This document shows positions 4,643-30,608 of a DNA stretch of 64,000 bases, one piece after another. The DNA comes from Sedimentisphaerales bacterium (lineage in GTDB: Bacteria; Planctomycetota; Phycisphaerae; Sedimentisphaerales; Anaerobacaceae). Made by a program: the position numbers and the translations under genes. The notes under the pieces are model-generated. The model did no database searches. It was given only the letters and a program-made list of their open reading frames with translations, and had not been told where the DNA came from. The stretch covers positions 4,256,001-4,320,000 of the forward strand of contig OY970194.1 in assembly GCA_963708075.1 (NCBI GenBank), written 5' to 3'. Every line of letters starts with the position of its first letter. Position 1 is the stretch's first letter.

Positions 4643-4721
4643 GGGTGCCGTGTCTACGCTTGCGCAGACATGTCCTACTCGATAGACAAGGCATGCTTAC
4701 GCTCGCGTAAGCATGGCACCC
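4643..4721. repeat. Palindromic REP/MITE-like element (GGTGCC...GGCACC family), copy 1
   Basis: Contains the palindrome atgcttacgctcgcgtaagcat; reverse complement of the copies near 36645 and 59573. Confidence 0.85.
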
Positions 4722-5174
4722 GAACCGTCCCATTTCTTCCCGACACCAGCCGCGAAGCGACGCAATGACTCGGCACAGAAAGGACGATCGCTCCTTCTCC
4801 GAATGTCGTAACCGCTCGGCCGGACAATTTCCTTGGCTACAATAGCGAATGGCTAATTCACTGCATTGGGCCGCCGGCCGACAGAAAGCGTATGGTTGCA
4901 TCGCTGGTGTGAATCCACTGCCATGTGGTTTTCAGGTGATGCTAACGATGCTTTTGGCCCTGGGAATGGTGCTGTAAGTGGACCATGTGGATAGACAGTG
5001 ATGCCTGTTCACGGCCCGTTGACCTGATTCCACAGCACCATTCCCTCCTTTGAACGTGCGGCAGACAACATGAGGCACGGCCTGAGAATCCAATGGCCTG
5101 ATATCTCCAGCCGACTGACGTTGAGAGAGGTGCCTTTCAAGGAACTCATAAGGCGGTAGATGCGAGAGAACATC

Positions 5175-5672: not shown

Positions 5673-5727
5673 GCCGGGGTTCCGGCGAAAACCACACCGG
5701 TAAGCCGGATCGCTGAAAGAAAGCAAA

Positions 5728-5759
5728 CGGGGCCTGCACCATGGTGGGCACAGGCCCCG
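5728..5759 (-). terminator. Probable intrinsic terminator of array gene 1
   Basis: Stem cggggcctg/caggccccg followed by a T-rich tract on the minus strand. Confidence 0.6.
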
Positions 5760-5793
5760 AATTCTACGTGACAGCCGGCAACGGTCGGTCGTC

Positions 5794-8700: not shown

Positions 8701-9228
8701 ATAAGCGACGTGGATGGTGATGTGCGCCGGAGTCACGTCCGCCGCGATCACGGGGGTCGTGAGGTGATATTCCACCCATTTATCGGTCATGGTGAACGCC
8801 GTACCGCCGTATCCGGTATAAGGATCCTGGGACAGTTCCGGCGAGACGAAGACCTGCGCGGTGCCGCTCTTGCTCTTGAGGAAGATCGAAAACGTGTATT
8901 TCTTGCCTTTCTGGAAAATGGTTCCCGGAGGCGTTGCCATGGGCGCCTGCACAGCGGCATCCCAGCGGTTGGCGCCTGCTCCGGAGACCTTTATGTTGAG
9001 GCAATACGTCCCCTCGATCGGTCCTTGGGGAACCGCAGCGCCGGCACAGTCCTTCACCACGGTGTACGTCGCGAGCCCGCCGTAGTTGCCCCACGGCGTG
9101 AGGGCCCCGGTTCCAAAGCCGCTGTTGTTGGTCAGAAGGTTCGTGGGCACCTGGGCCTGGCTCGGCGGACTGAATCCCAGGAGTACGATCGTCAATGCCG
9201 CAGTCAACCACACTGTTCGAACTCTCAT
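5794..9228 (-). CDS. Secreted multidomain protein, array gene 1 (signal peptide, CBM4/9-like, Fn3-like YYWRVDEV modules, F5/8-type discoidin, DUF1349-like insert, C-terminal LamG)
   Basis: RBS AAGGAGAGG before ATG 9228; signal MRVRTVWLTAALTIVLLG; NLLTNxGF...FWMDD; YYWRVDEV twice; GLSEVRF; WAHVAVTFDG...FNGAIDDVWLYN. Confidence 0.85.
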   Translation of the reverse strand: MRVRTVWLTAALTIVLLGFSPPSQAQVPTNLLTNNSGFGTGALTPWGNYGGLATYTVVKDCAGAAVPQGPIEGTYCLNIKVSGAGANRWDAAVQAPMATPPGTIFQKGKKYTFSIFLKSKSGTAQVFVSPELSQDPYTGYGGTAFTMTDKWVEYHLTTPVIAADVTPAHITIHVAYTAQEFWMDDAKWYEGDYVPTVTKDKLSAVKPAPENNATDIPRDPILSWKAGPFANTHNVYLGAGFEDVNKADIATAVSKGQTGTTFTPASLLDYGKTYYWRVDEVNAPPTNTVFKGDVWSFTVEPYAYTLTGVTATASSESTTQGYTAAKTVNGSGLAADGSTHSNVDTDMWLCAINQFPAWIQYAFDQPYVIQQMKVWNQNQKMETLVGWGAKDVLIEYSLDGTAWTALDSVEFPRADGSDTYAGFTVDMHSVYAKFIRLTINSAWGSFFKQAGLSEVRFQYIPVQARQPSPAVDSTGVSVNAGFDWRNGRQVASHKVYFSTDKAKVVDGTALVDTTTDNSYQPPSLDFGKLYYWRVDEVNTAPASDWAGNLWSFVTTEYGDIDNFESYTNDSPNRVFQTWIDGWGFSTDDFFPNGDPGNATSSMVGYDPALGDIMETSIVHGGGKAMPVEYNNVNTPYYSEVDRTWSTPQNWTTHGATDFSLWFRGSPAAFLETASGITLSGSGADIYQGTDEFRFAYKKLSGDGSITVRVDSVQTLTDWTKSGVMIRDSLEPLAMQVHMISAARQSLVEWMYRSIMASTTTTALATAANSNPLPVWLRITRVGNVFTGEYSANGTAWTKITATDGTASSITLVMPASVYLGMVVCSNSAGNLAIADFSQIKTTGTVTGQWQTADISVAQPANGPDTLYLTLVDSTNKSKTIVHPDPKATCSADWTQWRIPLSDLGVNAAAIKKMTIGIGSRSSPKAGAAGRIYIDDIQYGVPIPPLVAHYAFENDAKDGSGNGFDGTLVGGPTFVAGAKGQAVQFSGAVGPFVDLGTFNPSALTGKLSVSLWANWKGPTGLYQGLMAKRNWWDPAQMMWQIEANNAAGALTFARNGGSSVGGNPILPVNEWAHVAVTFDGATAWFYVNGAQTGSGAFSFGSNKDASMHIGCCDSNGGNPFNGAIDDVWLYNQALTAAEVKVLATK

Positions 9229-9250
9229 AGTACACCTCTCCTTACATTCA

Positions 9251-9330
9251 GTCGCTCTGCGACCTAACCCGGTTGGTTTTCGCTCGTCTCCTACGCTCTT
9301 CCAGGAACCGCCCGGAGTCGGCACTCTCAC
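9251..9330 (-). promoter_or_regulatory. Conserved leader motif, copy 1
   Basis: Homologous to 12874-12945, 16672-16740 and 20388-20467; hairpin TCCGGG-CGGTT-CCTGGA and palindrome GTCGC-AGA-GCGAC. Confidence 0.6.
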
Positions 9331-9342
9331 GGTAGAAAAACA

Positions 9343-9375
9343 TCGGGGCCCGTATCAAAGAGGTACGGGCCCCGA
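9343..9375 (-). terminator. Probable intrinsic terminator of array gene 2
   Basis: Stem tcggggcccgta/tacgggccccga followed by TGTTTTTCT on the minus strand. Confidence 0.7.
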
Positions 9376-9450
9376 ACTGTACATGCCAGCCGATTCGTAC
9401 GGCTGTCCGGTCGCCTGAACTGAGGGGTAACTCAGCCGGCAACGGTCCTC

Positions 9451-12400
9451 TTACTTGGCAGCCAAGGTCTTAACCTCAGCAGCGGTCAGAGCCCTGTTGT
9501 ATAGCCAGACCTCGTCGATGGCGCCGTTGAACGGGTTGCCACCGCTGGAATCACAGCAGCCGATGTGCATCGTGGCCTCCTTGTTGGAGCCGAACGAGAA
9601 GGCGCCGGAGCCCGTCTGGGTACCGTTGACGTAGAACCGTGCAGTCGCCCCATCGAAGCTGACGGCCACATGGGCCCACTCGTTCACCGGCAGGATCGTG
9701 CCGTTGGCCGAACCACTGCCATTTCGGGCGAACGTCAAGGCGCCTGCCGCGTTGTTCGCTTCGATCTGCCACATCATCTGGGCCGGATCCCACCAGTTTC
9801 TCTTGGCCATCAGGCCCTGATACAGACCGGTCGGACCCTTCCAGTTCGCCCACAGCGAGAACCGACAGCTTGCCCGTCAAGGCCGACGGGTTGAAGGTCC
9901 CCAGATCGACAAACGGACCTACCGCTCCGGTGAACTGGACGGCCTGGCCCTTTGCCCCGGCCACGAAGGTCGGACCACCGACCAGAGTACCGTCAAAGCC
10001 GTTGCCCGAGCTGTCCTTCGCATCGTTCTCGAAGGCATAGTGGGCGACCAGATCAGCAATGGGGGTGCCGTACTGGATGTCATCGATGAAGATCTTTCCA
10101 GCCGCACCCGCCTTCGGGCTGCTGCGGCTGCCGATCCCGATCGTCATCTTCTTGATGGCCGCGGCATTCACGCCAAGGTCCTTGAGCGGAATACGCCACT
10201 GGGTCCAATCACCCACGCAAGTGGCCTTCGGGTCGGGATGAACGATCGTCTTCGACTTGTTCGCGCTGTCCACGAGCGTCAGGTACAATGTGTCAGGCGT
10301 GTTGGCGGGTTGAGGGACCCCGACATCGGCTGCCTGCCACGCACCCGTGATGGTGCCGGTGGTCTTGATCTGGGAGAAGTCTGCCACGGCAAGGTTCCCT
10401 GCCGACTGGCTGCAGACCACCATACCCACATAGACGCTGGCGGGCATGGTGATCGTCGTCGAGGACGCCGTGCCGTCGGTTGCCGTAAGCTTCGTCCATG
10501 TCGTTCCATTCGCCGAGCACTCGCCTGTGAACACATTGCCCACACGCGTGATCCGCAGCCACAATGGCAGTGGATTGGAATTCGCCGTGGTGTTGAACGC
10601 CGTAGTGGTTGCGCTGCCCGAGGCGCTGCGGTACATCCACTCCGCCAGGCTCTGCTGTGCGGCGCTGATCATGTGGACCTGCATGGCCAGCGGGTCCAGG
10701 CTCTCACGGATCATCACACCGGCCTTCGTCCAACTGGCGGCGGTTTGAACGCTGTCAACTCGGACGGTGATCGAGCCATCGCCGCTGAGCTTCTTGTAGG
10801 CATAGCGGAACTCCGCAGTCCCCATGTAGATGTCCGCCCCGGCGCCACTGAGGGTGGCGCCTGATGCGGTTTCCACAAAGGCCGCCGGACTGCCCCGGAA
10901 CCACAGGCTCAGATCGGTGGCGCCGTTAGCCGTCCAGTTCTGAGGTGTTGACCAGGTCCGATCGACCTCGGAGTAATACGGACTATTGATGTTGTTGTAA
11001 TCCACGGGCATGGACTGCGTGCCGCCGTGGGTGATGGAAGTCTCCATGATCAGGCCCACCGCGGGGTCATAGCCGACCATCGAGCTTGTGGCGTTGCCCG
11101 GATCGCCGTTCGGGAAGAACTCATCCTTCGAGAAGCCCCAGCCGTCGATCCAGGTCTGGAAGACGCGGTTCGGCGAATCATTGGTATAGCTCTCGAAATC
11201 ATCGATAGCCGCCCATTCGGTGGTGACGAAGCTCCACAGGTTACCCGCCCAATCGCTGGCGGGAGCCGTGTTCACTTCGTCCACTCTCCAGTAGTACAAC
11301 TTGCCGAAGTCCAGAGACGGCGGCTGATAGGAGGTGTCCGTGGTCGTGTCGACCAGAGCTGTGCCATCGACGACCTTGGCTTTATCCGTGTTAAAATAGA
11401 CCTTGTGAGATGCGGCCGTTCGCCCTTCTCGCCAATCGAACCCGGTGTCCAGCGCCACGCCTACGCTATCCAAGGCCGGACTGGGCTGTCGGGCCTGCAC
11501 GGGGATGTACTGGAAGCGGACCTCGCTCAGGCCGGCCTGCTTGAAGAAGATGCCATAGGCGCTGTTGATCGTCAGCCGGACGAACTTCGCCTGCACGCTG
11601 TGCATGTCGACGTCGAACCCGGCGTAGGTATCCGAACCATCGGCCTGCGGGAATACCACGCTGTCCAAGGCGGTCCAGGCTGTCCCATCCAGCGAGTACT
11701 CGATCAGAACGTCCTTGGCGCCCCAGCCGATGGCCACTTCCATCTTCTGGTTCTGGTTCCACACCTTCATCTGCTGGATCACGTACGGCTGATCAAATGC
11801 ATACTGGATCCAGGCCGGGAACTGGTTGATCGCGCAGAGCCACATATCCACATCCACGCTCGAGTGCACGCCGTTGGTGGAACCCGAGCCATTGGTGGTC
11901 TTCTCCGGACCCATGTTTGCCGTCGAGGAGCTGGCCGTGGCTGTTACGCTCGTGACCGTATAGGTGTAGGGCTCTGCGGTGAAGCTCCAGACTTTGCCCT
12001 TGAAGACGGAAGAATCCGGCGGAGCGTTGACTTCATCGACTCGCCAGTAGTACGTCTTGCCATATTCGAGCAGGCCGGCGGGGTCGAAGCTGGTCTCCTT
12101 CTGGCCCTTGCTGACCGCCTTGGCGACATCGGCGTTGTTGACATCGTCAAAGCTGGTGCCAAAAAAGACATTGTGAGTATCCGCAAACGGGCCCGGGTTC
12201 CAGCTCAGGATGGTGTCACGGGGCACATCCGTGGCGTCCGCCTGTGGACTGGGCTCGTCAGCCGAGAATCGCTTCAGGAAGGCCGGCGGGGCATAGTCGC
12301 CTTCATACCATCGTATGGCATCCACCCAGAATTCCGCCTTGGCAAAACCAATGTGGAGTGCTAAGTCCGCGGGTGACACGTCCTCGGTGAAAACCGGAGT

Positions 12401-12850
12401 TGTGACGCTGTATTCCGCCCATGTGTCGGTCATGGTGACCTGCGTTTCACTGTATCCCGTCCACGGGTCTGCTCCATGTTCCGGCTTGAGGTTCATCGTC
12501 GCGGTCCCGCTCTTGCTCTTGAGCCATACGGAAAGAGTGTACTTCTTGCCTTTTTGGAAGACTGCAACCCCCCGGCCCAGGGAGGTCTCCCACCAATTTG
12601 GCGTTGCGTTGGGAACCGTCACATGCAGGCAGTACTTTCCCTCAATCGGACCTTCGGGGACCGCCGCGCCGACGCATTGGGTCACCACTTCACTGGTGGA
12701 GGGCGTCCCTACCCACCACGGGGCAAGAACACCGTCCTCAAAGCCGCCATTGGTCAGAAGATTTGGGGGCTCTTGTTGCGCGAGACATGGGGCCAACCCC
12801 ATGAGCCCGATCAACAAAGCCGCAGTCAACCACACTGCATAACTTCTCAT
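9451..12850 (-). CDS. Secreted multidomain protein, array gene 2 (same architecture as gene 1); +1 frameshift at ~9860
   Basis: ORFs 9551..12871 and 9451..9810 join if one A is removed from GAGAACC (9857-9863); gene 1 has GAGACC at 6203-6208. Confidence 0.85.
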
Positions 12851-12873
12851 AGTGCTGTTCTCCTTCACCATCA

Positions 12874-12945
12874 GTCGCTTTGCGACTTAACCCAATTGAT
12901 TCTCACTCGTCCACCCACAGTCTCCCAGGAACCACCCGGAATCAT
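12874..12945 (-). promoter_or_regulatory. Conserved leader motif, copy 2
   Basis: TTCCGGG-TGGTT-CCTGGGA hairpin and GTCGC-AAA-GCGAC. Confidence 0.6.
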
Positions 12946-13060
12946 CACACGACACATACATCACTGCGAAAGCCTTGCCGCCGCCACTTGCGTCGGTACT
13001 CCCGCAGGTTCACGTGAGATCAATCACTGTTCTATCACCAGTCCGTCGGCACCGGCCGCA

Positions 13061-16000
13061 TTACTTGCCTGCCAGGGCGGAGATCTCAGCGTCCGTCAGG
13101 ACGGTATCATAGATCCGGATATCATCCAGCGCGCCGTTGTACGAGTTGCCGCCGTCGGAGGTGTCAGCTCCGAACTGCAAGGGCGCCTCGCGGTTGGAGC
13201 CAAAGGAGAACGCGGCTTGCACTGTCCTGGCGCCGTTGATGTAGCCTCTGGCGGTCGTACCGTCGAAGGTCACGGCGATATGAATCCACTGGCCGATCGC
13301 CGGAGCGGCGGCCTGCAATACGATGTCGCCAATGCCTTCTCTCTGGAAGCGAAGCACTCCTGTGGTCTGATTGGCCTCGATCTGCCACATCATGGCGCTG
13401 GCGGCCCAGGTGTTGGTTCTCTTGCCGATCAGGCCTTGCCAGGCCGTGGACAGGCCGTCCCACTTGGCCCACAACGCGACGCTGAGCTTGCCCGTCTTCT
13501 CCGACGGATTGAAGGTCCCCAGGTCCACATACTGATGGCCGGATGTCCCTTCGAACAGCATGGCCTTGCCCTGACCCGCCGGGCCGTCCACGTAGGAGAC
13601 CGGGAAGGCCACGTTACCGGCTAATACGCCGTTATGGCCGTTGCCCGAGCTGTCCAGCGTGTCGCCTTCCAGCTTGAAATGAGCCACCAGGCCCACCGGC
13701 ATGATGGGGGCGCCGTACTGGATATCATCGAAGTAGACCTTTCCGGCCGCACCCGCCTTCGGACTGCTGCGGCTGCCGATGCCGATCGTCATCTTCTTGA
13801 TGGCCGCGGCATTTATGCCTGCGAGGTCCTTGAGCGGAATACGCCACTGGGTCCAATCAGCCACGCACGTGGCCTTCAGGTCGGGATGAACGATCGTCTT
13901 CGACTTGTTCGTGCTGTCCACGAGCGTCAGGTACAACGTGTCGGGGCCATTGGCCGGGTTTGGCCCGCCAATGTCCGCCACCTGCCATGTACCCGTGACC
14001 GAGGTGCTCGTGACGACATCGGAGAAGTCGGCGACACAGGCGCCGGCACTGCTGTTGTTGCTGGCCACGCCCATACCGACGAATATGCTGGCGCCCATGC
14101 TGATCGTCTGCGGGTTGGGCGAGGCATCGGCGCCGGTATTCTCCGTGGCCGGTTGAACGGTCCAGGTTGTGCCGTTCGTCGAGTAGGAAGCGGTGATCTG
14201 ATTGCCTTTTCGCTCCAGCTTGACCCAGAACGGCAACGCGATCTGGCTGATATCACTATGAGCGGAGAATGGGGCGCCGCCCGTTGTCGGCCGGTTCTGG
14301 AAGGCCCGCCGAAGATTCGGCGTCACGACCATGAACCCGTATGCAGAACCTGGATCGAGGCTCTCACGGATCATCACGCCGGCCTTGGACCAATCCGCCG
14401 CATAGCTGATGCTGTTGATCTTGGCCGTGATCGTGCCGTCGCCGCTGAGCTTCTTGTACACGAATCGGAAGTGATCGGCCGCGTTCCAGACATCCCCGCT
14501 GGTCGAGCTGACCACGAGATGACCATTGGCCGTCGTATCGAACTTGCCCGGATTGCCTCGGAACCACAGGCTCAGATCGGTGGCGCCGTTAGCCGTCCAG
14601 TTCTGAGGCGTTGACCAGGTCCGATCGACCTCGGAGTAGTACGGACTATTGACGTTGTTGTACTCCACGGGCATGGACTGTCCACTGCCGTGTACAATGC
14701 TCCTCTCCATGATGGCGCCAACCGCGGGGTCATAGCCGACCATCGAGCTTGTGCCGTTGCCCGGATCGCCGTTCGGGAAGAACTCATCTTTCGAGAAGCC
14801 CCAGCCGTCGATCCAGGTCTGGAAGACGCGGTTCGGCGAATCATTGGTATAGCTCTCGAAATCATCGATAGCCGCCCATTCGGTGGTGACGAAGCTCCAC
14901 ACGTTGCCCGGCCAATCGCTGGCGGGAGCGGTGTTCACTTCGTCCACTCTCCAGTAGTACAACTTTCCGAAGTCCAGAGACGGCGGCTGATAGGAGTTGT
15001 CCGTGGTCGTGTCGACCAGAGCTGTGCCATCGACGACCTTCGCTTTATCCGTGTTAAAATAGACCTTGTGAGATGCGGCCACTCGGCCCTCTCGCCAATC
15101 GAACCCGGTGTCCACCGGCACACCCTCCGCGTACTGAGCCGGACTGGGCTGTCGGGCCTGGACCGGGACCTGCGTAAAGCGGACCTCGCTCAAGCCGGCC
15201 TGCTTGAAGAAGATGCCATAGGCACTGTTGATCGTCAGCCGGACGAACCTCGCCTGCACATTGTGCATGTCGATAGTGAACCCGGGGTAGGTATCCGAAC
15301 CATCGGCCTGCGGGAATACCACGCTGTCCAAGGCGGTCCAGGCCGTGCCATCCAGGGAGTACTCGATCAGGACATCCTTGGCGCCCCAGCCGATGGCCAC
15401 TTCCATCTTCTGGTTCTGGTTCCATACCTTCATCTCGTGGATCACGTACGGCTGATCAAACGCATACCGGATCCAGGCCGGCAATTGGCCGAGAGTGCAC
15501 AGCCACATATCCGTATCCGTGCTCGAGTGCACGTCGCCAGTGAGACCTGAGCCATTGGTAGTCTTTTCCGGACCCATGTTTGCCGTCGAGGAGCTGGCCG
15601 TGGCCGTTACTCCGGTGACCATATAGGTGTAGGGCTCGACGCTAAAGCTCCATACGTCGCCCTTCAAGACCGCATTGCTCGGCGGAGCATTGACTTCATC
15701 GGCCCGCCAGTAGTAGGTCTTGCCGTACTCCAGGAGGCCGGCCGGCTGGAAGGTCGTTCCCGTCTGGCCCTTGCTGGCGGCTTGGGTGACATCGGCCTTG
15801 TTGACATCCTCCAAGCTGGCGCCCAGGTACACATTGTGCGTGTTGGCATACTCACCGGCAGTCCAGCCCAGCGCGACGTTGCGCGGTACATCCGTGGCGC
15901 CCACAGCAGGACTCGGGTCCTTGGCCGCTCCGGCAATCACGATCCCGATCTGCACGTTGTCGAAGTGAATGACTCCCGTAGTGCCGGCAGCAGAATCGGT

Positions 16001-16543
16001 GCAGAGGAACACGCTCTCGATGGCGGTGAAGTTCGCGTTGGTAACACTACCGACCACCTTGCCGTTCAGGCTGACGGTGAACTTTGTCCCGTCTTGCTCC
16101 AACACAATGCTGTTGTACACCCCTGAGGTCATATTTGCACCAGCGAATTCGACCCAGCCGGGCCAGCCGCCGTCCAGGGAGTTGGCATGGGTTATGGGGC
16201 CGCCGACCCAGCAGTAGAGCTCAAGGTAGGCGCTGCTTCCCGCGGAGTCGACACGGCAGTGGAAACTGAAGTTGTTATTCGCCAGGAAGTCGAAGGAGAC
16301 TCTCTTCTCGCCCGAAACAGGTCGGGAGATACCCGATCGCGCCCAGTCCGTGGCCTGCGTACCTGAGATCAGAACCTCGTTGTCCACAATCTCGGCCTTA
16401 ATGGTCCCATCCAGCTGAGCTGTCCAACCATTCCCTACAGGGCCATTGGGCCTGTTGAAGTCGTCCTTGAATGTCGACCCCCAGGCGTTGGCAACCGAGA
16501 GCGCACAGACAAGCACAGCGAGTTTCTGGATCTTACCCATCAT
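13061..16543 (-). CDS. Secreted multidomain protein, array gene 3 (ConA/lectin-like N-terminal domain, shared core, second type of insert and LamG)
   Basis: Intact 1160-aa ORF; signal MMGKIQKLAVLVCALSVANAWG; FKDDFNRPNG...HFDNVQI; core as in genes 1 and 2. Confidence 0.85.
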   Translation of the reverse strand: MMGKIQKLAVLVCALSVANAWGSTFKDDFNRPNGPVGNGWTAQLDGTIKAEIVDNEVLISGTQATDWARSGISRPVSGEKRVSFDFLANNNFSFHCRVDSAGSSAYLELYCWVGGPITHANSLDGGWPGWVEFAGANMTSGVYNSIVLEQDGTKFTVSLNGKVVGSVTNANFTAIESVFLCTDSAAGTTGVIHFDNVQIGIVIAGAAKDPSPAVGATDVPRNVALGWTAGEYANTHNVYLGASLEDVNKADVTQAASKGQTGTTFQPAGLLEYGKTYYWRADEVNAPPSNAVLKGDVWSFSVEPYTYMVTGVTATASSSTANMGPEKTTNGSGLTGDVHSSTDTDMWLCTLGQLPAWIRYAFDQPYVIHEMKVWNQNQKMEVAIGWGAKDVLIEYSLDGTAWTALDSVVFPQADGSDTYPGFTIDMHNVQARFVRLTINSAYGIFFKQAGLSEVRFTQVPVQARQPSPAQYAEGVPVDTGFDWREGRVAASHKVYFNTDKAKVVDGTALVDTTTDNSYQPPSLDFGKLYYWRVDEVNTAPASDWPGNVWSFVTTEWAAIDDFESYTNDSPNRVFQTWIDGWGFSKDEFFPNGDPGNGTSSMVGYDPAVGAIMERSIVHGSGQSMPVEYNNVNSPYYSEVDRTWSTPQNWTANGATDLSLWFRGNPGKFDTTANGHLVVSSTSGDVWNAADHFRFVYKKLSGDGTITAKINSISYAADWSKAGVMIRESLDPGSAYGFMVVTPNLRRAFQNRPTTGGAPFSAHSDISQIALPFWVKLERKGNQITASYSTNGTTWTVQPATENTGADASPNPQTISMGASIFVGMGVASNNSSAGACVADFSDVVTSTSVTGTWQVADIGGPNPANGPDTLYLTLVDSTNKSKTIVHPDLKATCVADWTQWRIPLKDLAGINAAAIKKMTIGIGSRSSPKAGAAGKVYFDDIQYGAPIMPVGLVAHFKLEGDTLDSSGNGHNGVLAGNVAFPVSYVDGPAGQGKAMLFEGTSGHQYVDLGTFNPSEKTGKLSVALWAKWDGLSTAWQGLIGKRTNTWAASAMMWQIEANQTTGVLRFQREGIGDIVLQAAAPAIGQWIHIAVTFDGTTARGYINGARTVQAAFSFGSNREAPLQFGADTSDGGNSYNGALDDIRIYDTVLTDAEISALAGK

Positions 16544-16595
16544 ATTTCTCCTTCCAAATCACGCCCGTTATTTGTTGAATCTGGCCGGGACCGGA

Positions 16596-16649
16596 GGCGA
16601 TGACTCCGATCAGCAAGGCCACGGTCAATCAAACGACTCGATCTACGAT
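16596..16649 (-). pseudogene. Fossil of an ancestral signal-peptide coding start upstream of gene 3
   Basis: ATC GTA GAT CGA GTC GTT TGA TTG ACC GTG GCC TTG CTG ATC GGA aligns with the gene 1/2 starts MRxxxVWLTAALLIG; ATG and TGG are destroyed. Confidence 0.7.
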
Positions 16650-16671
16650 AATCTTTGTTCCTTCTGGCTTT

Positions 16672-16740
16672 GTCGCAGCGCGACCTGAACCAGCAAATCG
16701 TGCTTGTCCATCAACACTATGGCCCGGACCATCCAGAGCC
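16672..16740 (-). promoter_or_regulatory. Conserved leader motif, copy 3 (most diverged)
   Basis: GGCTCTGGA-TGG-TCCGGGCC hairpin and GTCGC-GCT-GCGAC. Confidence 0.55.
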
Positions 16741-16781
16741 ATCCCATGTCACGTCCATCACGGCAAAGGGCCTTGCCGTCA

Positions 16782-19700
16782 CTACTTGGCGGCCAAGGCA
16801 GCGATCTCGGCATCGGTCAGGACAATATCATAGATCCGGATATCATCCAGCGCGCCGTTGTACGAGTTGCCGCCGCCGGCGGTGTCCGCCCCGAACTGGA
16901 CGGGGGTCTCGCGGCCCGTGCCAAAGCTGAACGCGGCTTGCACCGTCCTGGCGCCGTTGATGTAGCCCCGTGCAGTCGTGCCGTCGAAGGCCACGGCAAT
17001 GTGAACCCACTGGCCGACCGCCGGAGCGGTGGACTGCAGGACGACGTCGTTGCCTTCCCTCTGGAAGCGAAGCGATCCGTCGGTCTGGTTGGCTTCGATC
17101 TGCCACATCATGGCCGTGCGGTCCCAGGCACCGGTCCGCTTGCCGATGAGGCCTTGCCAGGCCGTGGACAGGCCGTCCCACTTGGCCCACAAGGCAACCG
17201 ACAGCTTGCCCGTCTTCTCCGACGGATTGAAGGTCCCCAGGTCCACATACTGATGGCCGGATGTCCCTTCGAACAGCATGGCCTTGCCCTGACCCGCCGG
17301 GCCGTCCACATAGGAGAACCGGCAAGGCCGCGTTACCGGCTAATACGCCGTTATGGCCGTTGCCCGAGCTGTCCAGCGTGTCGCCTTCCAGCTTGAAATG
17401 AGCCACCAGGCCCACCGGCATGATGGGGGCGCCGTACTGGATATCATCGAAGTAGACCTTTCCGGCCGCACCCGCCTTCGGACTGCTGCGGCTGCCGATG
17501 CCGATCGTCATCTTCTTGATGGCCGCGGCATTTATGCCTGCGAGGTCCTTGAGCGGAATACGCCACTGGGTCCAATCAGCCACGCACGTGGCCTTCAGGT
17601 CGGGATGAACGATCGTCTTCGACTTGTTCGTGCTGTCCACGAGCGTCAGGTACAACGTGTCGGGGCCATTGGCCGGGTTTGGCCCGCCAATGTCCGCCAC
17701 CTGCCATGTACCCGTGACCGAGGTGCTCGTGACGACATCGGAGAAGTCGGCGACACAGGCGCCGGCACTGCTGTTGTTGCTGGCCACGCCCATACCGACG
17801 AATATGCTGGCGCCCATGCTGATCGTCTGCGGGTTGGGCGAGGCATCGGCGCCGGTATTCTCCGTGGCCGGTTGAACGGTCCAGGTTGTGCCGTTCGTCG
17901 AGTAGGAAGCGGTGATCTGATTGCCTTTTCGCTCCAGCTTCACCCAGAACGGCAACGCGATCTGGCTGATATCACTATGAGCGGAGAATGGGGCGCCGCC
18001 CGTTGTCGGCCGGTTCTGGAAGGCCCGCCGAAGATTCGGCGTCACGACCATGAACCCGTATGCAGAACCTGGATCGAGGCTCTCACGGATCATCACGCCG
18101 GCCTTGGACCAATCCGCCGCATAGCTGATGCTGTTGATCTTGGCCGTGATCGTGCCGTCGCCGCTGAGCTTCTTGTACACGAATCGGAAGTGATCGGCCG
18201 CGTTCCAGACATCCCCACTGGTCGAGCTGACAACGAGATGACCATTGGCCGTCGTATCGAACTTGCCCGGATTGCCCCGGAACCACAGGCTCAGATCGGT
18301 GGCGCCGTTGGCCGTCCAGTTCTGAGGCGTTGGCCAGGTCCGATCGACCTCGGAGTAGTACGGACTATTGACGTTGTTGTACTCCACGGGCATGGCCTGT
18401 GCGCCGCCGTGGATAATGGAGGTTCTCCATGATCTGACCCACCGCGGGGTCATAGCCAACCATCGAGCTTGTGGCGTTGCCCGGATCGCCGTTCGGGAAG
18501 AACTCATCTTTCGAGAAGCCCCAGCCGTCGATCCAGGTCTGGAAGACGCGGTTCGGCGAATCATTGGTATAGCTCTCGAAATCATCGATAGCCGCCCATT
18601 CGGTGGTGACAAAGCTCCACACGTTGCCCGGCCAATCGCTGGCCGGAGCGGTGTTCACTTCGTCCACTTTCCAGTAGTACAGCTTGCCGAAGTCCAGAGA
18701 CGGCGGCTGATAGGAGGTGTCCGTGGTCGTGTCGACCAGAGCTGTGCCATCGACGACCTTGGCTTTATCCGTGTTAAAATAGATTTTGTGAGATGCGGCC
18801 GTTCGGCCCCCTCGCCAACTGAACCCGCTGTCCACGGCCACACCTGTGCTATCCACGGCTGGACTAGGCTGTCGGGCCTGCACGGGGACGTACTGGAAGC
18901 GGACCTCGCTCAAGCCGGCCTGCTTGAAGAAGATGCCCCAGGGGCTGTTGATCGTGAGCCGGACGAACCTCGCCTGTACGTTGTGCATGTCGATAGTGAA
19001 CCCGGCGTAGGTATCCGAACCATCGGCCTGCGGGAATACCACGCTGTCCAAAGCGGTCCAGGCCGTGCCATCCAGCGAGTACTCGATCAGGACATCCTTG
19101 GCGCCCCAGCCGATGGCCAATTCCATCTTCTGGTTCTGGTTCCACACCTTCATCTGCTGGATCACGTACGGCTGATCAAACGCATACTGAATCCAGGCCG
19201 GGAACTGGTTGATCGCGCAGAGCCACATATCCGTATCCGTGCTCGAGTGCACGTCGCCAGTGAGACCTGAGCCATTGGTGGTCTTCTCCGGTCCCATGTT
19301 TGCCGTCGAGGAGCTGGCCGTGGCTGTCACTCCGGTGATCGTATAGGCGTAGGGCTCGACGGTAAAGCTCCATACGTCGCCCTTGAAGACCGTATTGGTC
19401 GGCGGAGCGTTGACTTCATCTACTCGCCAGTAGTAGGTCTTGCCGTACTCCAGCAGGCTGGCCGGCTGGAAGGTTGTCCCCGTCTGGCCCTTGCTGACCG
19501 CCTTCGTGATATCGGCGTCGTTGACATCATCATAGCTGGCGCCCAGGTACACGTTGTGCGTCTGGGCATACACCCCCGGCTCCCAACTCAGCGACGTATC
19601 GGCGGGTACATCGCCATCCCCATCGCCGGGGACAGGCTCGAAGGGGCGTGCAACAAGCGTCTTATCGAGCGCAGGCGGCTTCTCCGTGCCCATCCAGATC

Positions 19701-20218
19701 CGATCGACGTACAGATCCGTGCCGTTGCCGGCGAGGTTGAAATGGAAGTCTATGTCGCTGTCGAAGACCCCCGTTCCTCCAACCGTTGCACCCGTGTGGG
19801 TGTACTCGAAGTTGAATGTCTGTGGCTCGGTGGTCAGTTGGATGTCCTGGCTCCAGTACACCTGCCAGCTGTGCAGCGCGCGGGCCTGGATCAGTAGCGT
19901 GACCGGCCGCGGGGCGTCTGCCTTGGCCATGAAGCTGATGTAGTGTGTCTTGCCCTGCTCAAGCTTCAAGTATGAGCGGAAGACCAGCAGCGGATCGAGT
20001 GATCCGGTCCCGATGTCTATCTTCATCGCGTTTCGGCCGGACAGCTTGGCGCCCTGTACGGTGGATATGCCGGTGAAGTTCTCGCTCTGCCACAGGTTCC
20101 AAAGGCTGGTAAGCGTCACCGACTCATCGAATTCCCAGTTGGGAATCTGGTTTTGGGCGCGGGCTGTGACCACAGACAGCGCAACGACAATGACGAAAGC
20201 TACGAACTTGCTACGCAT
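16782..20218 (-). CDS. Secreted multidomain protein, array gene 4 (different CBM4/9-like N-terminus); +1 frameshifts at ~17317 and ~18424
   Basis: ORFs 18365..20263, 16843..18612 and 16782..17309 join into one paralog of gene 3; signal MRSKFVAFVIVVALSVVTARA. Confidence 0.85.
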
Positions 20219-20311
20219 GGTGTGCCCCTTCCAAAAAAAGGTCGAAAAGGAATAATGTGCCACGCATGAATCGTTTCAGTCGATCGCGTCCCTCCGCCGG
20301 AACCACCCGAA

Positions 20312-20365
20312 GGCGATGACTCCGATCAGCAAGGCCGCGGCCAACTAAACGACTCGATTTCTCCT
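20312..20365 (-). pseudogene. Fossil of an ancestral signal-peptide coding start upstream of gene 4
   Basis: AGG AGA AAT CGA GTC GTT TAG TTG GCC GCG GCC TTG CTG ATC GGA GTC ATC GCC. Confidence 0.7.
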
Positions 20366-20387
20366 AATTCTTGCTCGTTCTTGCTTT

Positions 20388-20467
20388 GTCGCGATGCGAC
20401 CTGACCCGGTAGATTTTGCTCGTCCACCAACATTCTTCCAGGAATCACCTGGAATCAGTACTCTCAC
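20388..20467 (-). promoter_or_regulatory. Conserved leader motif, copy 4
   Basis: Perfect TTCCAGG-TGATT-CCTGGAA hairpin and GTCGC-ATC-GCGAC. Confidence 0.6.
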
Positions 20468-20750
20468 AGATTCGCACAGTCCTGAATCACTGTCCTATCG
20501 GCCGTCCTTTAGATAATCTGTAACGGACCTTCGAAGCTATCTCATCAGGGCGCCACGCATACACAACGACCTCCGGTGGTTGTACCCCTGCCGGCGCACA
20601 ATGTGGCAACAGTCACAGAAACCAGGGAATTATGTCGCGCTCTGTATGTACAGTTCGACGGAATTGCACATTACCTCCATCCGGCATAGATACCACTCAA
20701 CTCCGGCGGCCCTGCCAGCGAAGAAACACCTACAGGCCCTTAGCGGCAGT

Positions 20751-20780
20751 ATATTATCAGACTCCCCGCCAGCGCGTCAA
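20751..20780 (-). promoter_or_regulatory. Possible sigma70 promoter of the array
   Basis: TTGACG followed by TGATAATAT (16-18 nt spacer) on the minus strand. Confidence 0.35.
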
Positions 20781-20816
20781 GCGCAAAAAGAGCGATTCCG
20801 CAAGCGGGAGTGACCG

Positions 20817-23348
20817 TTATTGTGACGGGTGCCCTTCTAAATCGAGATAAGGCCATTTATTCGCGGCCTCCGGATGGTACCAGAAGAGTTTCCAATATTC
20901 CTGGTCCAGGGAAAATCCATCCACAGGATCGACGCCCGGGTCGAATTGCGCGGGCAGGACACCGAACCTCTTCATCTCCCGGATGTATTGCCGATTGGGC
21001 TTGAATCCGGGCATGCCATACCTTGCAGTCGCTGCGAGTTGCTGGTTCCGACCTCGGATATCCGTAAGCAGCGTCCGGTAATCCACGTCTTCTGTGCCTT
21101 CAAACTGATGCGGGCAACTGGCCCACCCCCCTGCCGATTTTGGCAGCGGGCCCAGCAACAGGGGCGAACACTCCGGGCGAGACAGGTTCAGCAGCACGTG
21201 TGCGGAAAAACGAAGGTCCTCCTGGCGGACAATGCGTTCATAGGGGGCCAACCGCAGCGTCTTTACTATTTCTGTTCGTTCCTGCTCCGACATCCCCAGA
21301 GGCAGCGGAGGGGCTTGTTTTCCCTCCACATGACATTGCCGGCATCGCTGGTTCAGGACCGGTGATCCAAACGCGGAGTGTAAGGAGCCCTCGCGGGCCT
21401 GGTCCTCGGCATTGCGCAGGGCGGCATAGGTCCCCGCGTACGGCGCCCCGCTTTCCAGCCATAGCCAGATCGTCCGCCACTGATCGGCCGTGACCTTGAC
21501 ATCGTGGTGGGAGCCGTCGATCTTGTGCACCAGCCCGCTCGCCGATGAGCCGATGGTACGCGGCTTCTGGTTTCCAAGACCGTTGCGGCCGTCCGCCACC
21601 TGGCCGGCGGCCAGCAGCGTGTAGTAGCTGATCGACCAGCACACGCCGAGATCGTCGGTCAGTACCACGTGCCCCTGCGGATCGTCGTAGCTGTGGCATT
21701 TGACGCAGTGGGCGTTGAGGATTGGCTGGATGTCCCGGCGGAAGTCCAGTACGTCCGGTAAAGTCTGAAATGGCGTGATCCGGCTTGGGGCCCGCCGGGC
21801 AGCCAGCAGTGCGGCGCTCGCCGTGGAGGCGGGCGTCTGCATCCGCGGCTCGTGGCACCCGACGCAGCCGAGCACTTCGCCCGGCATGATGCTCGTGAAG
21901 CTCTGCATCCGTTTGACGGACAGGTCATTCGCATCCAGTGCGACGAAGAACACCGGCCGGCCCGCGGGAACCTCGAAGTACGCGGAGCCGTCGGACTCCA
22001 CAGGCACCGTGCCCAGGACCCGTTCCAGCGTGAACGTCCCCAGCCAGGAGGTCAGGTCCATGCCGCCGCTGAAGTTCACCGGCTTGGGCAGGATTTCGAG
22101 GACCAGCAGCTTTTTGATGTCGCCGGGCCGGATACCCTCCATGTTTCGCCCGCTGTACACGTTCGCCAGAAGCATCCTGCCGCTGGCGCTGGCGGCGTTC
22201 GTGCGGTCGGTCAGGATGCGCTCGCGGGGCCGCTGTGTCACCGGGATCGGCTCATGGACGTTCGCCCCGCCCTTGCAGGTCAGGACGGGCGTGAGACTGC
22301 CGTCGTACGTCCCGAGGAGAACCCGTTTCTGCGAGGCCACCAGGAAAGCGTCTTTGCCGATAGGCGCCGGATCGTTGCATCCCCACTTGTTCGCGATTCG
22401 GCGGCTGCCCCGCACGTCGTCTGGGCCGTACTGGACCGAGATCGTGCAGACGAATCCCCGATGGTCCGTGCTGCCGTGGCCCGGGGAGTCGATCAGCAGC
22501 AGCGCGTCGCTGCCGGGGATTGGTTTGGCGTCGATGTACAGCGGATAGTGTTCCTGGTTGCCGAAATGTGCCGTCACGTCGGTCCCGTCCGGGTTCATCG
22601 CCCAGAGCTGATGGTATCCCACCTGGGAGCGGTCCACATACTCCCACCGCGTGTAGAGGATTCGCCCATCGGGCAGGACGGCGGGCGTGTTGTCGTGCTC
22701 GATATTGAAAGACAGCGGGCGAATGTTCCCGCCCTGACGGTCGCAGCGAAACAGCGTGCCGACCTGGGTCATCCAGCAGCCGACCCATCGTTCGCTCCGC
22801 GTCGAGACGAAGACGATGTCGCCGTCGGGCAGGTAGATTGCCTCATAGTCATCGAATGGTCCCTGCGTGACCTGCCGCAGCCCGGTGCCATCGATCTGCA
22901 TCTCACAGAGATTGTAATAGTCGCTCCCAGCCCGGCGGTAAGAGAACAGGATGGTCCGACCGTCATAGTGGACATGCGGGTCCCGGATACTCCCGCCGCC
23001 GGCGTCGAGCAGGACGTCGATTTGGCCCGTGGCGGTATTGAGCAGGTACAACGCGCTCTCATCCGGCTTGCCATTGCCGGCGTAGGCCTTGTGATTCTCA
23101 TCGTCGCAGTAGTACCCGATGTTGGCGTACCAATGCGGGTCATCGTAGCCGAGCCGGGTCGCAAAGACCACTTGTCCGATGCCCAACCGGGCCAGCGCCT
23201 CTACGCCCTTCTCGATCTGAAAACGCTGCCCCTCCGCAGGAGATGTCTGCCCATTCACCGTCACCCAGCATGACAGGAGCACAACCGCCAGAGCACATAT
23301 CAGCCGCACCATGTGGTTCATCTTGCGGTTTGCCCGACTCATTGCCAT
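20817..23348 (-). CDS. Exported beta-propeller/cytochrome c protein related to hydrazine synthase alpha middle domain (HzsA-related)
   Basis: LPDGDIVFVSTR, DGRILYTRWEYVDR, LGTVPVESDGSAYFEVPA, MQSFT..MPGE..GCVGCHE, further CVKCH and CRQCH; hydrophobic N-terminus. Confidence 0.8.
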   Translation of the reverse strand: MAMSRANRKMNHMVRLICALAVVLLSCWVTVNGQTSPAEGQRFQIEKGVEALARLGIGQVVFATRLGYDDPHWYANIGYYCDDENHKAYAGNGKPDESALYLLNTATGQIDVLLDAGGGSIRDPHVHYDGRTILFSYRRAGSDYYNLCEMQIDGTGLRQVTQGPFDDYEAIYLPDGDIVFVSTRSERWVGCWMTQVGTLFRCDRQGGNIRPLSFNIEHDNTPAVLPDGRILYTRWEYVDRSQVGYHQLWAMNPDGTDVTAHFGNQEHYPLYIDAKPIPGSDALLLIDSPGHGSTDHRGFVCTISVQYGPDDVRGSRRIANKWGCNDPAPIGKDAFLVASQKRVLLGTYDGSLTPVLTCKGGANVHEPIPVTQRPRERILTDRTNAASASGRMLLANVYSGRNMEGIRPGDIKKLLVLEILPKPVNFSGGMDLTSWLGTFTLERVLGTVPVESDGSAYFEVPAGRPVFFVALDANDLSVKRMQSFTSIMPGEVLGCVGCHEPRMQTPASTASAALLAARRAPSRITPFQTLPDVLDFRRDIQPILNAHCVKCHSYDDPQGHVVLTDDLGVCWSISYYTLLAAGQVADGRNGLGNQKPRTIGSSASGLVHKIDGSHHDVKVTADQWRTIWLWLESGAPYAGTYAALRNAEDQAREGSLHSAFGSPVLNQRCRQCHVEGKQAPPLPLGMSEQERTEIVKTLRLAPYERIVRQEDLRFSAHVLLNLSRPECSPLLLGPLPKSAGGWASCPHQFEGTEDVDYRTLLTDIRGRNQQLAATARYGMPGFKPNRQYIREMKRFGVLPAQFDPGVDPVDGFSLDQEYWKLFWYHPEAANKWPYLDLEGHPSQ

Positions 23349-26314: not shown

Positions 26315-26474
26315 GGTGGCTACAGTGGCGGATTACCGTCCCCCTGTCGAGTAGCGGATTCTTGCGGATGAAGAGGGATCATCGATGGCGCGGGAGGATG
26401 ACAGTTTCGTAAAAGGCGCCGCCGCGCCGGTTGTCTACACGTTTTGCGAGGTTCTGCGATTAAGGAGGCCGATC

Positions 26475-29205
26475 ATGTCCAGTAAGTCGATCATGCTTGT
26501 CACGGTAGCGTTCGTACTGGGGCTGGCGCAAGCCGGTTTCGCCCAGGTGGACTCGGATCTTATTGGGTGGTGGCGGATGGATGAGGGGCGGGGCACCACT
26601 GCCGCTGATCTAAGTCGGTACGGCAATCACGGCACCTTTGTCGGAGCCCCCAAGTGGTTCGCCGGCAAAATCGGCAGTGCCCTGCAATTCGACGGAGCCG
26701 ACGACTACGCGCGCTGTGCCCAACGGGTGGGAGCCAAGCCTGGCACCTATTCGGCGGAACTGATGCCGGCGACGTTCACCGTAGCCTGTTGGACAAAACT
26801 GGACACCTTCGCCTTTTTCAGCAGCTTCGTCGGGAACGGCATGGACAGCGCGGACGATGAGTGCGGCTTCTTCCTGTATAATTACGGCTGGCTCGATGAG
26901 AGCGGAAAAGACTTCGGCCTGGCGATACGCACCGAGACAGGCGCCGAAATGAGCTACGTGGAGACTCCGAACACCTATGAGAACCAACACGTGGTACCAC
27001 GTCGCCGCAACCTATGACGGGACCAACGTCAGCATGTACGTCAACGGCGCCCTTGTCGCCGGCCCTACGGATGTGGGTGGTCCCATGCGATGGATCAGTC
27101 AGGCCAGCGGAAATTACCCGGAGCGGTTCTCCATCGGGGTGTGGCTCGACCCGGGCTACGATCTATGGGTGGACGGCGCCATCGACGACGTGCGCTACTA
27201 CAGCCGAGCTCTCGATGCGAGCGAGGTCAAAGCGCTCATGACGGCTGTGTCGTATTACCCGTTCGCCTACGCTCCGATACCCAAGCACAGCACCACGATC
27301 AAGACAACCTCGCAGGTGCTTCAGTGGAGCCCGGGTGACTCGGCCGTCTCGCACGAAGTCTACTTCGGCCAGAGCCTGGAGCAGGTCGCTGCGGCCACGC
27401 CGGCCGATATCGGCGTCTTCGTCGGCAGGCTCGCTGTCCGCACGCTGGTCGTCGGCACAGGCAGCGGTCCCTACCCCCAGGGACTGACTCCTGGAGCCAC
27501 CTACTACTGGCGCGTGGATGAGGTCAACGATGCAAATCCCAACAGTTTGTGGAAAGGCGAGGTCTGGAGTTTCTCGGTCCAGCCGCTGACCGCGTGGAAG
27601 CCGTACCCGCCCGATGGGATGAGACATGTCGATCCCAATCAGGACCTGAGCTGGGAAGACGGGCTGGGCGCCGTATACAACACAGTCTACGTCGGCCGCA
27701 GCTTCGATGAGGTCAACAACGCCACGGCAGATGGAACGATCGCGATGGGCCCCGTCCATGATCCGGGCCCCCTCGCGCTGGACACGACGTACTACTGGCG
27801 AGTGGACCAGTACGTGACTCCGGCAAACGTCACACGCAAGGGCCCCGTCTGGAGCCTCACCACGCGCGGGCCCGGCGGCGGCGTCAAGGCCCAGTACTTC
27901 GACGGCAGGAACCTCTCGGGAACGCCGGTACTGACCCAGATCGAGGGTTCAATCGACCACGCCTGGGGCGGTGAGATCGCCGGCGGCCTGGCCGACAATG
28001 TCTCGGCCCGCTGGACGGCCGATCTCGAGGCCCCGTTCACCGAGACGTACAATCTCATCACGACCAGCGATGACGGCGTGCGGCTTTGGCTCGACGGCCG
28101 CATGATCGTCGACAACTGGACCGACCACGGCACCACCAGCAACGTGGCCAAGGTGGACCTGATCGCAGGCCAGATCTACTCCGTCCGTATGGAGTTCTAT
28201 GAGGGCGAAGGGTCCGCGGTGGCGAAGCTCTCCTGGGAGAGCCCGACGCTCCCACGACAGATCATTCCGCAAGGCTGGCTGCAGTTGGCGCTCTGGGCGA
28301 CCAGTCCCTCTCCGGCCAATGGCGAAACCCAAGCCCCGCCGACGCCGATGCTTCGCTGGAGCGCCGGCGATGAGGCCACCAATCACGACGTCTACTTCGG
28401 TGCGGATTCCGCGGCGGTGACCGCGGCAACGCCCGCCGACGCGGGCGTCTATGGCGGCAGGCAGGCCGTAGATGCTGTCACCTACAACCCCGGGCCGCTG
28501 GAGTGGAACAAGACCTACTATTGGCGCGTGGACGAGGTCAATCTGGCAAATCCGGAGAGTCCGTGGAAAGGCCGCGTGTGGAGCTTCACCACCGCCAACT
28601 TCGTCGTCATCGATGACTTCGAGGTCTACACCAACGATTCGCCCAACCGCCTCTTCCAGACCTGGGTCGATGGCCTGGGCTACTCGAAGGATCTGTACTT
28701 CCCGAACGGCTATGGCGGCAACAGCACGGGTGCGGCCGTCGGACACGACGTCTGGAACTCGCAAAGCGCATACTTCGGCGGCTCCATCGTCGAGACCAAA
28801 GACGTTCACGGCGGCTATCAGGCGATGCCTCTCTACTACGACAACACGGCCACGCCCTACGATTCCGAGGCCCAGCGAACGTGGTCCACGGCGCAGGACT
28901 GGACAGTCAACGGCGTCACCGACTTGGTGCTGTACGCACGCGGCAAGGCAGATAACGCTCCTGCCCCGCTATACATAGCGGTCGAAGACAGTGCCGGCCA
29001 CGTCGCCATTGTCACCCACGCGGACAGCGCTACTGCAACCGCCAAGGACTGGGCCGAGTGGAAGATCCCGCTCAGCGATCTCGCCAATGCCAAGGTGACG
29101 TTGACCGCCGTCAAGAAAATGTGCATCGGCGTAGGCAGCCGGAACGCCGCAGCGGCAGGCGGAGCCGGCGTGGTCTTTATCGATGACATTCGCCTGACCA
29201 AATAG
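26475..29205 (+). CDS. Secreted LamG + Fn3-like + PA14 protein of the same family; +1 frameshift at ~26982
   Basis: RBS TAAGGAGG; signal peptide; LamG; YYWRVD three times; PA14 (TSDDGVRLWLDG); C-terminal IDDFE.YTNDSPNR...FIDDI module. Confidence 0.85.
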
Positions 29206-29365: not shown

Positions 29366-29651
29366 CGGAGGGTCAAATCTGCTGCCGAATACCGGCAGCC
29401 GCCTCGCCCTCTTCATTGCCGCACAGACCTCCGCGCAGGGTGAATCACTTTCGATCGATTTTCGCACGATTCGTGCGCCGGTTTGGAAGTAAAAACAGGC
29501 GCCGCTGCAAATTTTCTTATTCCTTTCCCTGCCGGGACTTGCGGCATTTCCAACCTCCCGCAAGCCCGTTTTCTTCGACCAAATCGCGCACTTTCGTCCC
29601 CTAGTGGAGGGACGCCTTGTCCGTCCGCGACCCTCCGGCACCCGTGCCATT

Positions 29652-30608
29652 ATGGGATGTGAAATGGACAATGCAGACATGGAGTCATCCGTGGAGAAGC
29701 GAACTTGTGCAAACTGCGTGTATGCCACGCCCCTGTGGGGCCGCTGGCTGCGGATCATCATGGCTGGCTGGTCCGGCCTGCGGATCTGCTTCAACAGTGC
29801 CCAGTCCCCCGGCCGCCTGCAGGAGGTCTACCCCACCGGCTCCTGCCGAAACTTCCATCCGAGGTGCGTCCAGCAGCATCACGCCCGACTACTGGACCGT
29901 TCGCCGAACACCTCACGGTCAAGGGAGGAAACGCGTCTAATCCCCCTGACCCACGGCTTGCACGCCATCGTCGACGCCGCCGACTTCGAGTGGCTCAGCC
30001 AGTACCAGTGGTTCCTGTGGGGCCCGGGTTACGCCGCCCGCCGCGTACGTGGCGGCGTCATCCTCATGCACAGGGAGATCATGAACGCTCCGACAGGCAA
30101 GGACATCGATCATTTCAACGGCCACCCATCGGACAATCGCAGACGCAATTTGCGTATCTGCACGCGATCCGAGAACCTGCGCAATACGCGCAAACGCCGC
30201 GGATGCCTGTCTCAGTACAAGGGCGTCTCCGTCAACAATCGTCACAGCAAGTGGATCGCCCAGATCTCGCTTGAACGCGAAAACATCAAGTTGGGCACGT
30301 TCGATGACGAGGCCGAAGCCGCACGCGCCTTCGACCGAGCCGCCCTCCTGCTCTTCGGCGAATACGCCTGGCTCAATTTTCCCGAAGAGTTCGACACCCG
30401 CCGCCAGGAAATCGCCAGTCCCCAATACCAGAAAGAGCTGGCCGCCAGAATAGAGAGAAAGAAGTCAAGAAAGCGTCAACGCCCACACGCCAAAGCGAAG
30501 TCCACCAAACGCAAGCCCCACGCCGCCGCGCGACGACGCAAAGGAGATAACAGAAAGAGAAAACGATCCCCCACGAACAAAACACGAAGGCATTCATCGC
30601 CTAACTGA
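29652..30608 (+). CDS. HNH endonuclease-AP2 domain protein with Cys-rich N-terminus and basic tail
   Basis: IPLT.G..AIVDAADFEWL, MHREIM, IDHFNG..DNRRRNLR...N, SQYKGV, LGTF...EAARAFDRAA..LFGEYAWLNFP. Start uncertain. Confidence 0.85.
   Translation: MGCEMDNADMESSVEKRTCANCVYATPLWGRWLRIIMAGWSGLRICFNSAQSPGRLQEVYPTGSCRNFHPRCVQQHHARLLDRSPNTSRSREETRLIPLTHGLHAIVDAADFEWLSQYQWFLWGPGYAARRVRGGVILMHREIMNAPTGKDIDHFNGHPSDNRRRNLRICTRSENLRNTRKRRGCLSQYKGVSVNNRHSKWIAQISLERENIKLGTFDDEAEAARAFDRAALLLFGEYAWLNFPEEFDTRRQEIASPQYQKELAARIERKKSRKRQRPHAKAKSTKRKPHAAARRRKGDNRKRKRSPTNKTRRHSSPN

Follow-up and report, generated by a model that had tools for sequence, protein, structure and literature searches.

Dead Signal-Peptide Starts Upstream of Two Tandem Lectin-Like Genes in a Sedimentisphaerales Planctomycete: Probable Scars of Gene Shuffling

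Introduction

Two genes of a tandem array in a Sedimentisphaerales bacterium carry, a short distance upstream of their working starts, what looks like the dead start of a sister gene. How did these stretches arise, why do they no longer function as starts, and does any part of them serve a purpose? The host genome is a single contig of 7.5 Mb, and the window considered here is the whole stretch of 64,000 nucleotides that was analysed, whose coordinates are used throughout. An earlier note on this window had proposed that new heads, each with its own ribosome-binding site and signal, were inserted behind the old starts of genes 3 and 4 and that selection silenced the old start twice. The relics are likely readable scars of gene shuffling and not a proven regulatory device.

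Organization of the Array

The array consists of four paralogs on the minus strand, arranged head to tail, with starts at 20218 (gene 4), 16543 (gene 3), 12850 (gene 2), and 9228 (gene 1). As read from the sequence, it appears to lie behind a single putative promoter-like site (20780-20751, minus strand; TTGACG, 18 nt, TAATAT), whose layout is identical in the related loci L064, L066, and L068. The site is followed by a conserved operon 5′ leader (20590-20740, minus strand), orthologous in L064, L066, L068, and L069 with 81-82% identity over 91-178 nt and without an Rfam match; indeed, a search of 4000-22000 against Rfam gave no matches at E ≤ 1. This conservation extends across lineages whose cores are 60-70% identical; the leader is possibly a structured RNA. 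A partial copy of the same leader occurs in L066 near 10192-10266.

Each paralog comprises a signal peptide, a variable head of about 200 amino acids, a core (F5/8 type C and a DUF1349-like part), and a LamG tail. Gene 4 (16782-20218, minus strand) follows this plan with its own signal peptide and a CBM_4_9-like head, and CBM_4_9 is also the head match for genes 1 and 2. Gene 3 (13061-16543, minus strand; 1160 aa) has its own signal peptide, the shared core, and the LamG tail; no Pfam family matched its head, for which there are feature-level leads only (Atlas DUF6645/lectin-like folds). The start and head found in genes 1 and 2 are referred to as type A, and relatives of this head come mostly from Sedimentisphaerales, Phycisphaerae, and other planctomycetes. 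Gene 2 (9451-12955, minus strand) and gene 1 (5794-9335, minus strand) both retain an intact type-A leader. In the assembly, gene 4 is interrupted by two frameshifts, near 18423 and 17317, and gene 2 by one near 9810. These and the broken frames at 23.7-27.0 kb are likely long-read assembly errors, although contigs of paralogs may have been assigned to the wrong copy. The extra base at 17317 is missing from contigs of three runs, which may derive from the near-identical gene 3.

The Relics and Their Damage

Both stretches are genuine dead copies of a type-A gene start, and the positions that the earlier note assigned to them are correct. The gene 4 relic (20307-20365, minus strand) corresponds to codons 1-19 of the type-A signal peptide, with AGG in place of the start codon (20365-20363) and TAG in place of Trp7 (20347-20345). 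The gene 3 relic (16566-16649, minus strand) spans the full signal peptide and the first mature codons, to codon 28 (about 16566); its start reads ATC (16649-16647), Trp7 has become TGA (16631-16629), and it is out of frame with gene 3. The two relics align with 79% identity over 126 nt (E 8e-26).

The type-A leader is present in four copies in the genome, one before each array gene. In the leader of the gene 4 relic (20366-20470, minus strand), a short hairpin called element M (20458-20437) is followed by the hairpin GTCGC-3-GCGAC (20400-20388) and by a damaged Shine-Dalgarno (SD) core (20377-20374); in that of the gene 3 relic (16650-16750, minus strand), the same parts lie at about 16746-16717, at 16684-16672, and at 16661-16658. 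The SD damage, GGAG to CGAG before gene 4 and GGAG to GGAA before gene 3, is a point that the earlier note missed. Thus SD core, start codon, and Trp7 are altered in each relic, every time by different changes. Downstream, the gene 4 relic meets the native 5′ UTR of the gene 4-type head (20219-20306, minus strand; aligned against relic-free relatives) at a TCCGG-type microhomology, and this UTR holds an in-frame TGA at 20278-20276. The gene 3 relic joins the native 5′ UTR and SD of the gene 3-type head (16544-16568, minus strand), matched by the UTRs of L016, L020, and L067, at a microhomology of about 3-5 nt.

Intact ATG and TGG codons, for which the earlier note had proposed to look in the sequencing data, are not seen in the contigs of run X1. 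These contigs (not raw reads, from what may be the source sample) show no differences over 16552-16751 and 19940-20528, and their base-for-base match rules out sequencing error as the source of the relics. In a related strain (run X4, from a different study than runs X1, X2, and X5, which belong together), 20193-20371 is present with two differences and one gap, and 20372-20416 is missing. This 45-nt deletion falls between 7-nt direct repeats and takes out the leader hairpin; the altered SD base belongs to the second copy of the repeat. The idea that the relics are remnants of a short single-domain gene was dropped, as the neighbours concerned are full-length paralogs with a C-terminal CBM.

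With five substitutions in 57 nt per relic, the loss of the start together with the gain of a stop by codon 12 has a probability of 0.027-0.029 for each relic under random substitution and of about 8e-4 for both, the SD hits being extra; the statistic rests on a reconstructed ancestor, the test was picked after the data had been seen, and n = 2 in the genome. Read in this way, the proposal that the old start was silenced twice holds, since the kills are independent and the hits on translation signals exceed chance. The observation that the same two codons were struck differently (ATC and TGA against AGG and TAG) is likewise correct, but the stop at the same codon in both relics is partly expected because Trp7 holds 40-50% of all single-step nonsense routes.

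Intact Counterparts and a Third Relic

Intact versions of the dead start, for which the earlier note had asked, are found in relatives. When 61 genomes were searched with the DNA of the gene 4 relic, five of the 60 other genomes matched, all of them congeners, and all eight non-own loci are intact MRNR/MRDR..W starts. A pattern search of 151 family genomes, two of them congeners, gave matches outside the host genome with one or two mismatches. Among the intact type-A starts (63, drawn from 141 sequences), ATG or GTG is present in 63/63, TGG at codon 7 in 57/63, and GGAG in the SD position in 59/63, and a charged residue occurs at positions 7-18 in one of the 63.

A third long relic was found among 12 metagenome loci with a gene 4-type head, namely on contig L067, where it lies before such a head. 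It has kept SD and ATG and carries W7R and L13R, so that none of the three long relics retains Trp7, each having lost it through a different transition. Shorter joints also occur. At L057 (genome G007), a LamG-type head follows eight type-A codons in the same frame; SD and ATG are undamaged there, and the hydrophobic core is absent. At L024 (genome G021), the junction lies at the SD, where the type-A leader passes into a gene 3-type start.

The 14 other gene 3-type loci have no recognisable relic. Ten other close gene 4-type loci include the one relic, one possible degenerate remnant (L030), one locus with just 55 nt upstream, and seven without any, so that a recognisable relic is absent in eight of the nine assessable loci. 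An RNA-model search of 24 genus genomes, with a rescan of the loci, found no further long relic, at most 128 candidates being scored per genome and several genomes being fragmented. A genome-wide scan for relics of other families found none and is uninformative, as it missed both known relics too.

Short frames with an SD were noticed in L065 (near 9850-9900), L083 (near 9885-9925), L013 (near 2170-2230), and, upstream of the type-A leader, in L079 and L081. Some of them resemble the start of another family (MCKRFVF.., MCRKVV stop, MCKKSGL..), and five, although unequal in length, terminate in frame with DSG-stop within element M. They are either nested relics or a conserved small upstream ORF.

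Proposed Origin and Silencing

The relics probably go back to recombination in which members of the tandem family exchange leaders, heads, cores, and tails, and selection against a translated orphan signal peptide then probably silenced them. One end of each event would have relied on true homology, in element M or in the core, and the other end on 5-12 nt of microhomology, so that ordinary homologous and microhomology recombination would suffice and no dedicated recombinase would be involved. The junction positions are indeed varied: the SD in L024, codon 8 in L057, codon 19-20 in gene 4 and L067, and codon 28 in gene 3. Microhomologies at these junctions are of the TCCGG type in gene 4 and L067, TGATGG in L057, and about 3-5 nt in gene 3, the overall range being given as 5-12 nt. 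Site-specific recombination of the cassette or shufflon kind was dropped, because no recombinase occurs among the 26 window ORFs scanned and the junctions fall at four different positions.

A stub with a strong SD and ATG would yield a free hydrophobic peptide, and before gene 3 it would form a 39-codon frame overlapping the working SD and start out of frame. Free signal peptides have been proposed to hinder or block translocation, according to the accessible part of the source (PMC5404308). Mutations stopping translation of the stub would then have been favoured step by step. All three relics that have the hydrophobic core are disabled, and the in-frame stub that lacks it, in L057, is not; if a hydrophobic or out-of-frame product is the target of selection, the persistence of SD and ATG in L057 is expected. 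Selected silencing is thus likely, judging from the pattern of damage, although once one signal is dead the other two hits on the same relic need not involve selection. What this model leaves unexplained is the identity of a short block shared by the three relics.

The relics amount to a legible record of the module-wise rebuilding of a large secreted lectin-like family in uncultured Sedimentisphaerales-type planctomycetes. They also form a natural replicate experiment: one and the same orphan signal peptide was put out of action in three lineages, each time through other mutations, and a short stub in frame with its gene stayed untouched. What an orphan signal peptide costs, or an upstream frame that overlaps, can thereby be tested directly.

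The Conserved Block

The identical stretch pointed out in the earlier note is a 26-nt block at 20336-20311 (gene 4) and 16620-16595 (gene 3), minus strand, from which the L067 relic differs at a single position. With 26 mismatches spread over 126 nt, the run by itself has P = 0.03. It has been considered whether codons 10-19 of the relic were recruited to serve as a cis-acting RNA element or a portable UTR module, with silencing serving to keep ribosomes from melting it and selection keeping or moving the block; this appears unlikely. The identity itself argues for it: all three relic pairs agree at 28/30 positions of a 30-nt block, and the intact pairs have a median of 18/30, with one of 435 reaching 28 (from an alignment of 37 intact starts that have the hairpin leader, gapped pairs being excluded). 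By comparison with the block, codons 1-9 of the relics match at 16-19/27 and the leaders at 33-34/58 against L067. The core motif of the block is present in 3/3 long relics and 0/63 intact starts, and the gene 4-type heads of the window and of L067 are not sisters. Changes number 16 before and two inside codons 11-19 (binomial 0.001, or 0.018 without the kill changes, with a boundary set after the fact), and the junctions sit at the 3′ edge of the block. A recently exchanged or unsampled allele, or some further constraint, may however equally account for such identity.

The predicted structures on balance weigh against co-option. In its favour, the block forms in short folds a hairpin of 5-8 bp in gene 3 and L067, and in gene 3 it may alternatively pair with element M (0.53 vs 0.41). 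No common fold of the three relics was found in full context, where each folds differently, and the z-scores of the relics alone are -0.86, 1.35, and 0.30. The fold of the gene 4 UTR has z = -2.65, as the best of 10 folds, and nothing comparable is seen in L067. The relic-specific base shifts the opening of the start site by 0.4-1.6 kcal/mol in gene 3, by 0 in gene 4, and in the opposite direction in L067; the proposal that the block masks an anti-SD to free the working start was dropped, the effect being small and limited to gene 3. The lack of a recognisable relic at nearly all the other assessable loci, mentioned above, also speaks against an element under selection.

As for the earlier suggestion that the stretch serves as a recombination or RNA element, the third relic shows it to be better conserved than the earlier note could tell, and the junctions lie at its 3′ edge, but folding gives the RNA role no support. 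In its broadest form, leader and block would be an exapted portable RNA or recombination module, moved before different heads, with translation switched off separately in every copy and the nucleotide sequence of the block itself preserved, a reading that is unlikely; under it, the gene 3 block would be kept for a two-state pairing with element M. Were it true, UTRs in the array family would grow by collecting the dead starts of sister genes, and a functional block would be coding sequence turned into a UTR element.

Mosaicism and Direction of Change

The shuffling invoked above is visible across the genus, where heads A, 3, and 4, LamG, and two tail types occur in varied combinations with leaders and cores. 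A tree of 49 cores groups the four from the window together as a clade irrespective of head (100/99), and the cores of G018, G022, and L066 likewise cluster by genome and not by head type. A type-A gene lies directly upstream of a gene 3-type gene in L067 and, judging by positions, also in G005 and G021. At fourfold sites, genes 3 and 4 differ by 0.1-0.2 near the ends of their shared part and by 0-0.06 in a 1.2-kb stretch between them, suggesting recent conversion.

Strict N-terminal replacement in both genes, as first proposed, would make them former type-A genes in which a new head, bringing its own RBS and signal, had come to lie behind the old start. This is improbable, even though a single event would account for both the relic and the chimaera of head and core, congener heads match the gene 4 head at 77-80% identity and the cores that go with them match at 51-56%, and genes 3 and 4 are closest to each other in their cores (93% DNA identity) and in their relics alike. 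For gene 4 the proposal, one route among several, is unlikely in view of its relatives. In L064, L066/L069, and L068, the promoter and 5′ leader of the window run into the gene 4 head without a relic (the upstream regions of L066 and L069 are alike, and the two may come from one organism). L064 and L066 have in common a UTR segment in whose place the window has the type-A leader and relic, and in the core tree L064 is the sister of the window cores. Chimaeric cores, moreover, occur also in genomes without relics.

Since the promoter and head of gene 4 occur relic-free in three syntenic relatives, the head of gene 4 is likely the resident and the relic the newcomer. Element M is found in type-A leaders and in the gene 4 UTR alike, and the simplest history suggested by the sequences is an incoming type-A piece anchored there. 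Under the shuffling model, such a piece would have entered the UTR of the resident gene as a conversion or template-switch tract from a sister; alternatively, a type-A gene would first have come to lie ahead of it and then have been lost by deletion. In the case of gene 3, a replaced head and the loss of a type-A gene from upstream fit equally well, as both would give the same sequence.

Neutral decay, by which the relics are harmless scars with coincidental hits on SD, start, and Trp7, is very improbable: Trp7 as the likeliest nonsense target, the leader divergence of 15/59 between the two relics, the 45 nt of leader deleted in the X4 strain, and the SD and ATG kept in L067 fit it, but they are set against a joint probability of about 8e-4 before the SD hits are counted and three different transitions at Trp7 in the three long relics.

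Comparison with Known Systems

The nearest parallel is C-terminal displacement in rhs genes, in which, according to the accessible portions of Jackson et al. (2009, PMC2935791), a conserved core takes up one variable terminal module in place of another and the displaced piece stays beside the gene, the exchange being slow and confined to related family members. As far as those portions go, the array is similar in that its genes also swap a variable terminal module between loci on a conserved core, the relic adjoins the gene, and exchange is slow and limited to related family members. It differs from that account in several respects. The array relic is a 5′ end (leader, SD, and signal peptide) that lies upstream and measures 60-85 nt rather than a whole domain; the proteins are lectin-like and not toxins, without immunity genes or cassette arrays; and the gene 4 relic is likely the incoming piece and not the displaced end. 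At the array, rhs domains and arrays of dissociated C-terminal tips were not found, single upstream stubs being present instead. By analogy, the relics may be described as recombination scars forming a 5′ mirror of rhs tip displacement, yet the array is not an rhs member, because it has no rhs core and no cassette array and displacement is only putative.

Homology-facilitated illegitimate recombination combines one homologous anchor with one junction at a few matching bases and is known from transformation experiments. The array resembles it in the microhomology at the nonhomologous junctions of gene 4, L067, L057, and gene 3; the difference is that recombination is here deduced from junction sequences, which intragenomic conversion or deletion would fit equally.

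A literature search, with subscription papers mostly outside its range, found no account of the array family or of upstream signal-peptide relics.

The Leader Hairpin and Minor Observations

A covarying 6-bp hairpin lies 8-10 nt before the type-A SD in all four array leaders (9229-9335, 12851-12955, 16650-16750, and 20366-20470) and in about 35 related loci. In the stem, 93.6% of cells pair, five of six pairs have two-sided changes, and G-U pairs are present, slid controls reaching at most 45%; the set consists of 40 sequences selected for having the leader, so that relatedness and selection inflate the result. Both relic leaders of the window keep five stem pairs. The hairpin is a candidate stabilising or processing stem. 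In the cip-cel operon, the accessible text of one source (PMC4423207) describes selective RNA processing and stabilization by intergenic stem-loops, and to that extent the two are alike, each being an operon of secreted carbohydrate-active proteins with conserved intergenic hairpins, of which the type-A leader hairpin covaries. The likeness covers the leader hairpin and not the coding relic. Before gene 4 the hairpin is not indispensable, because the X4 strain has deleted it there.

Start opening at gene 4 is predicted to cost 15 kcal/mol, compared with 7.4-9.5 in relic-free relatives (L064-L066), and gene 4 may therefore be poorly translated or switchable. At 20219-20262, a pyrimidine tract kept in gene 4-type UTRs is predicted to pair with the SD.

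Elsewhere in the window, further LamG/F5-8 type C paralogs lie outside the array at 51656-54841 (plus strand) and 26385-29205 (minus strand), with no type-A leader match. The gene at 31257-34496 (minus strand) encodes a 1079-aa protein with a calcineurin-like phosphoesterase match and a weak nSTAND NTPase match, and from its domains it looks like an anti-phage defence-type gene. At 29604-30608 (plus strand), a protein with HNH and AP2 domains has a homing-endonuclease-like architecture. A dispersed intergenic repeat of about 60 nt occurs in the host genome (G000:C1) near 6717569 and in at least six other places.
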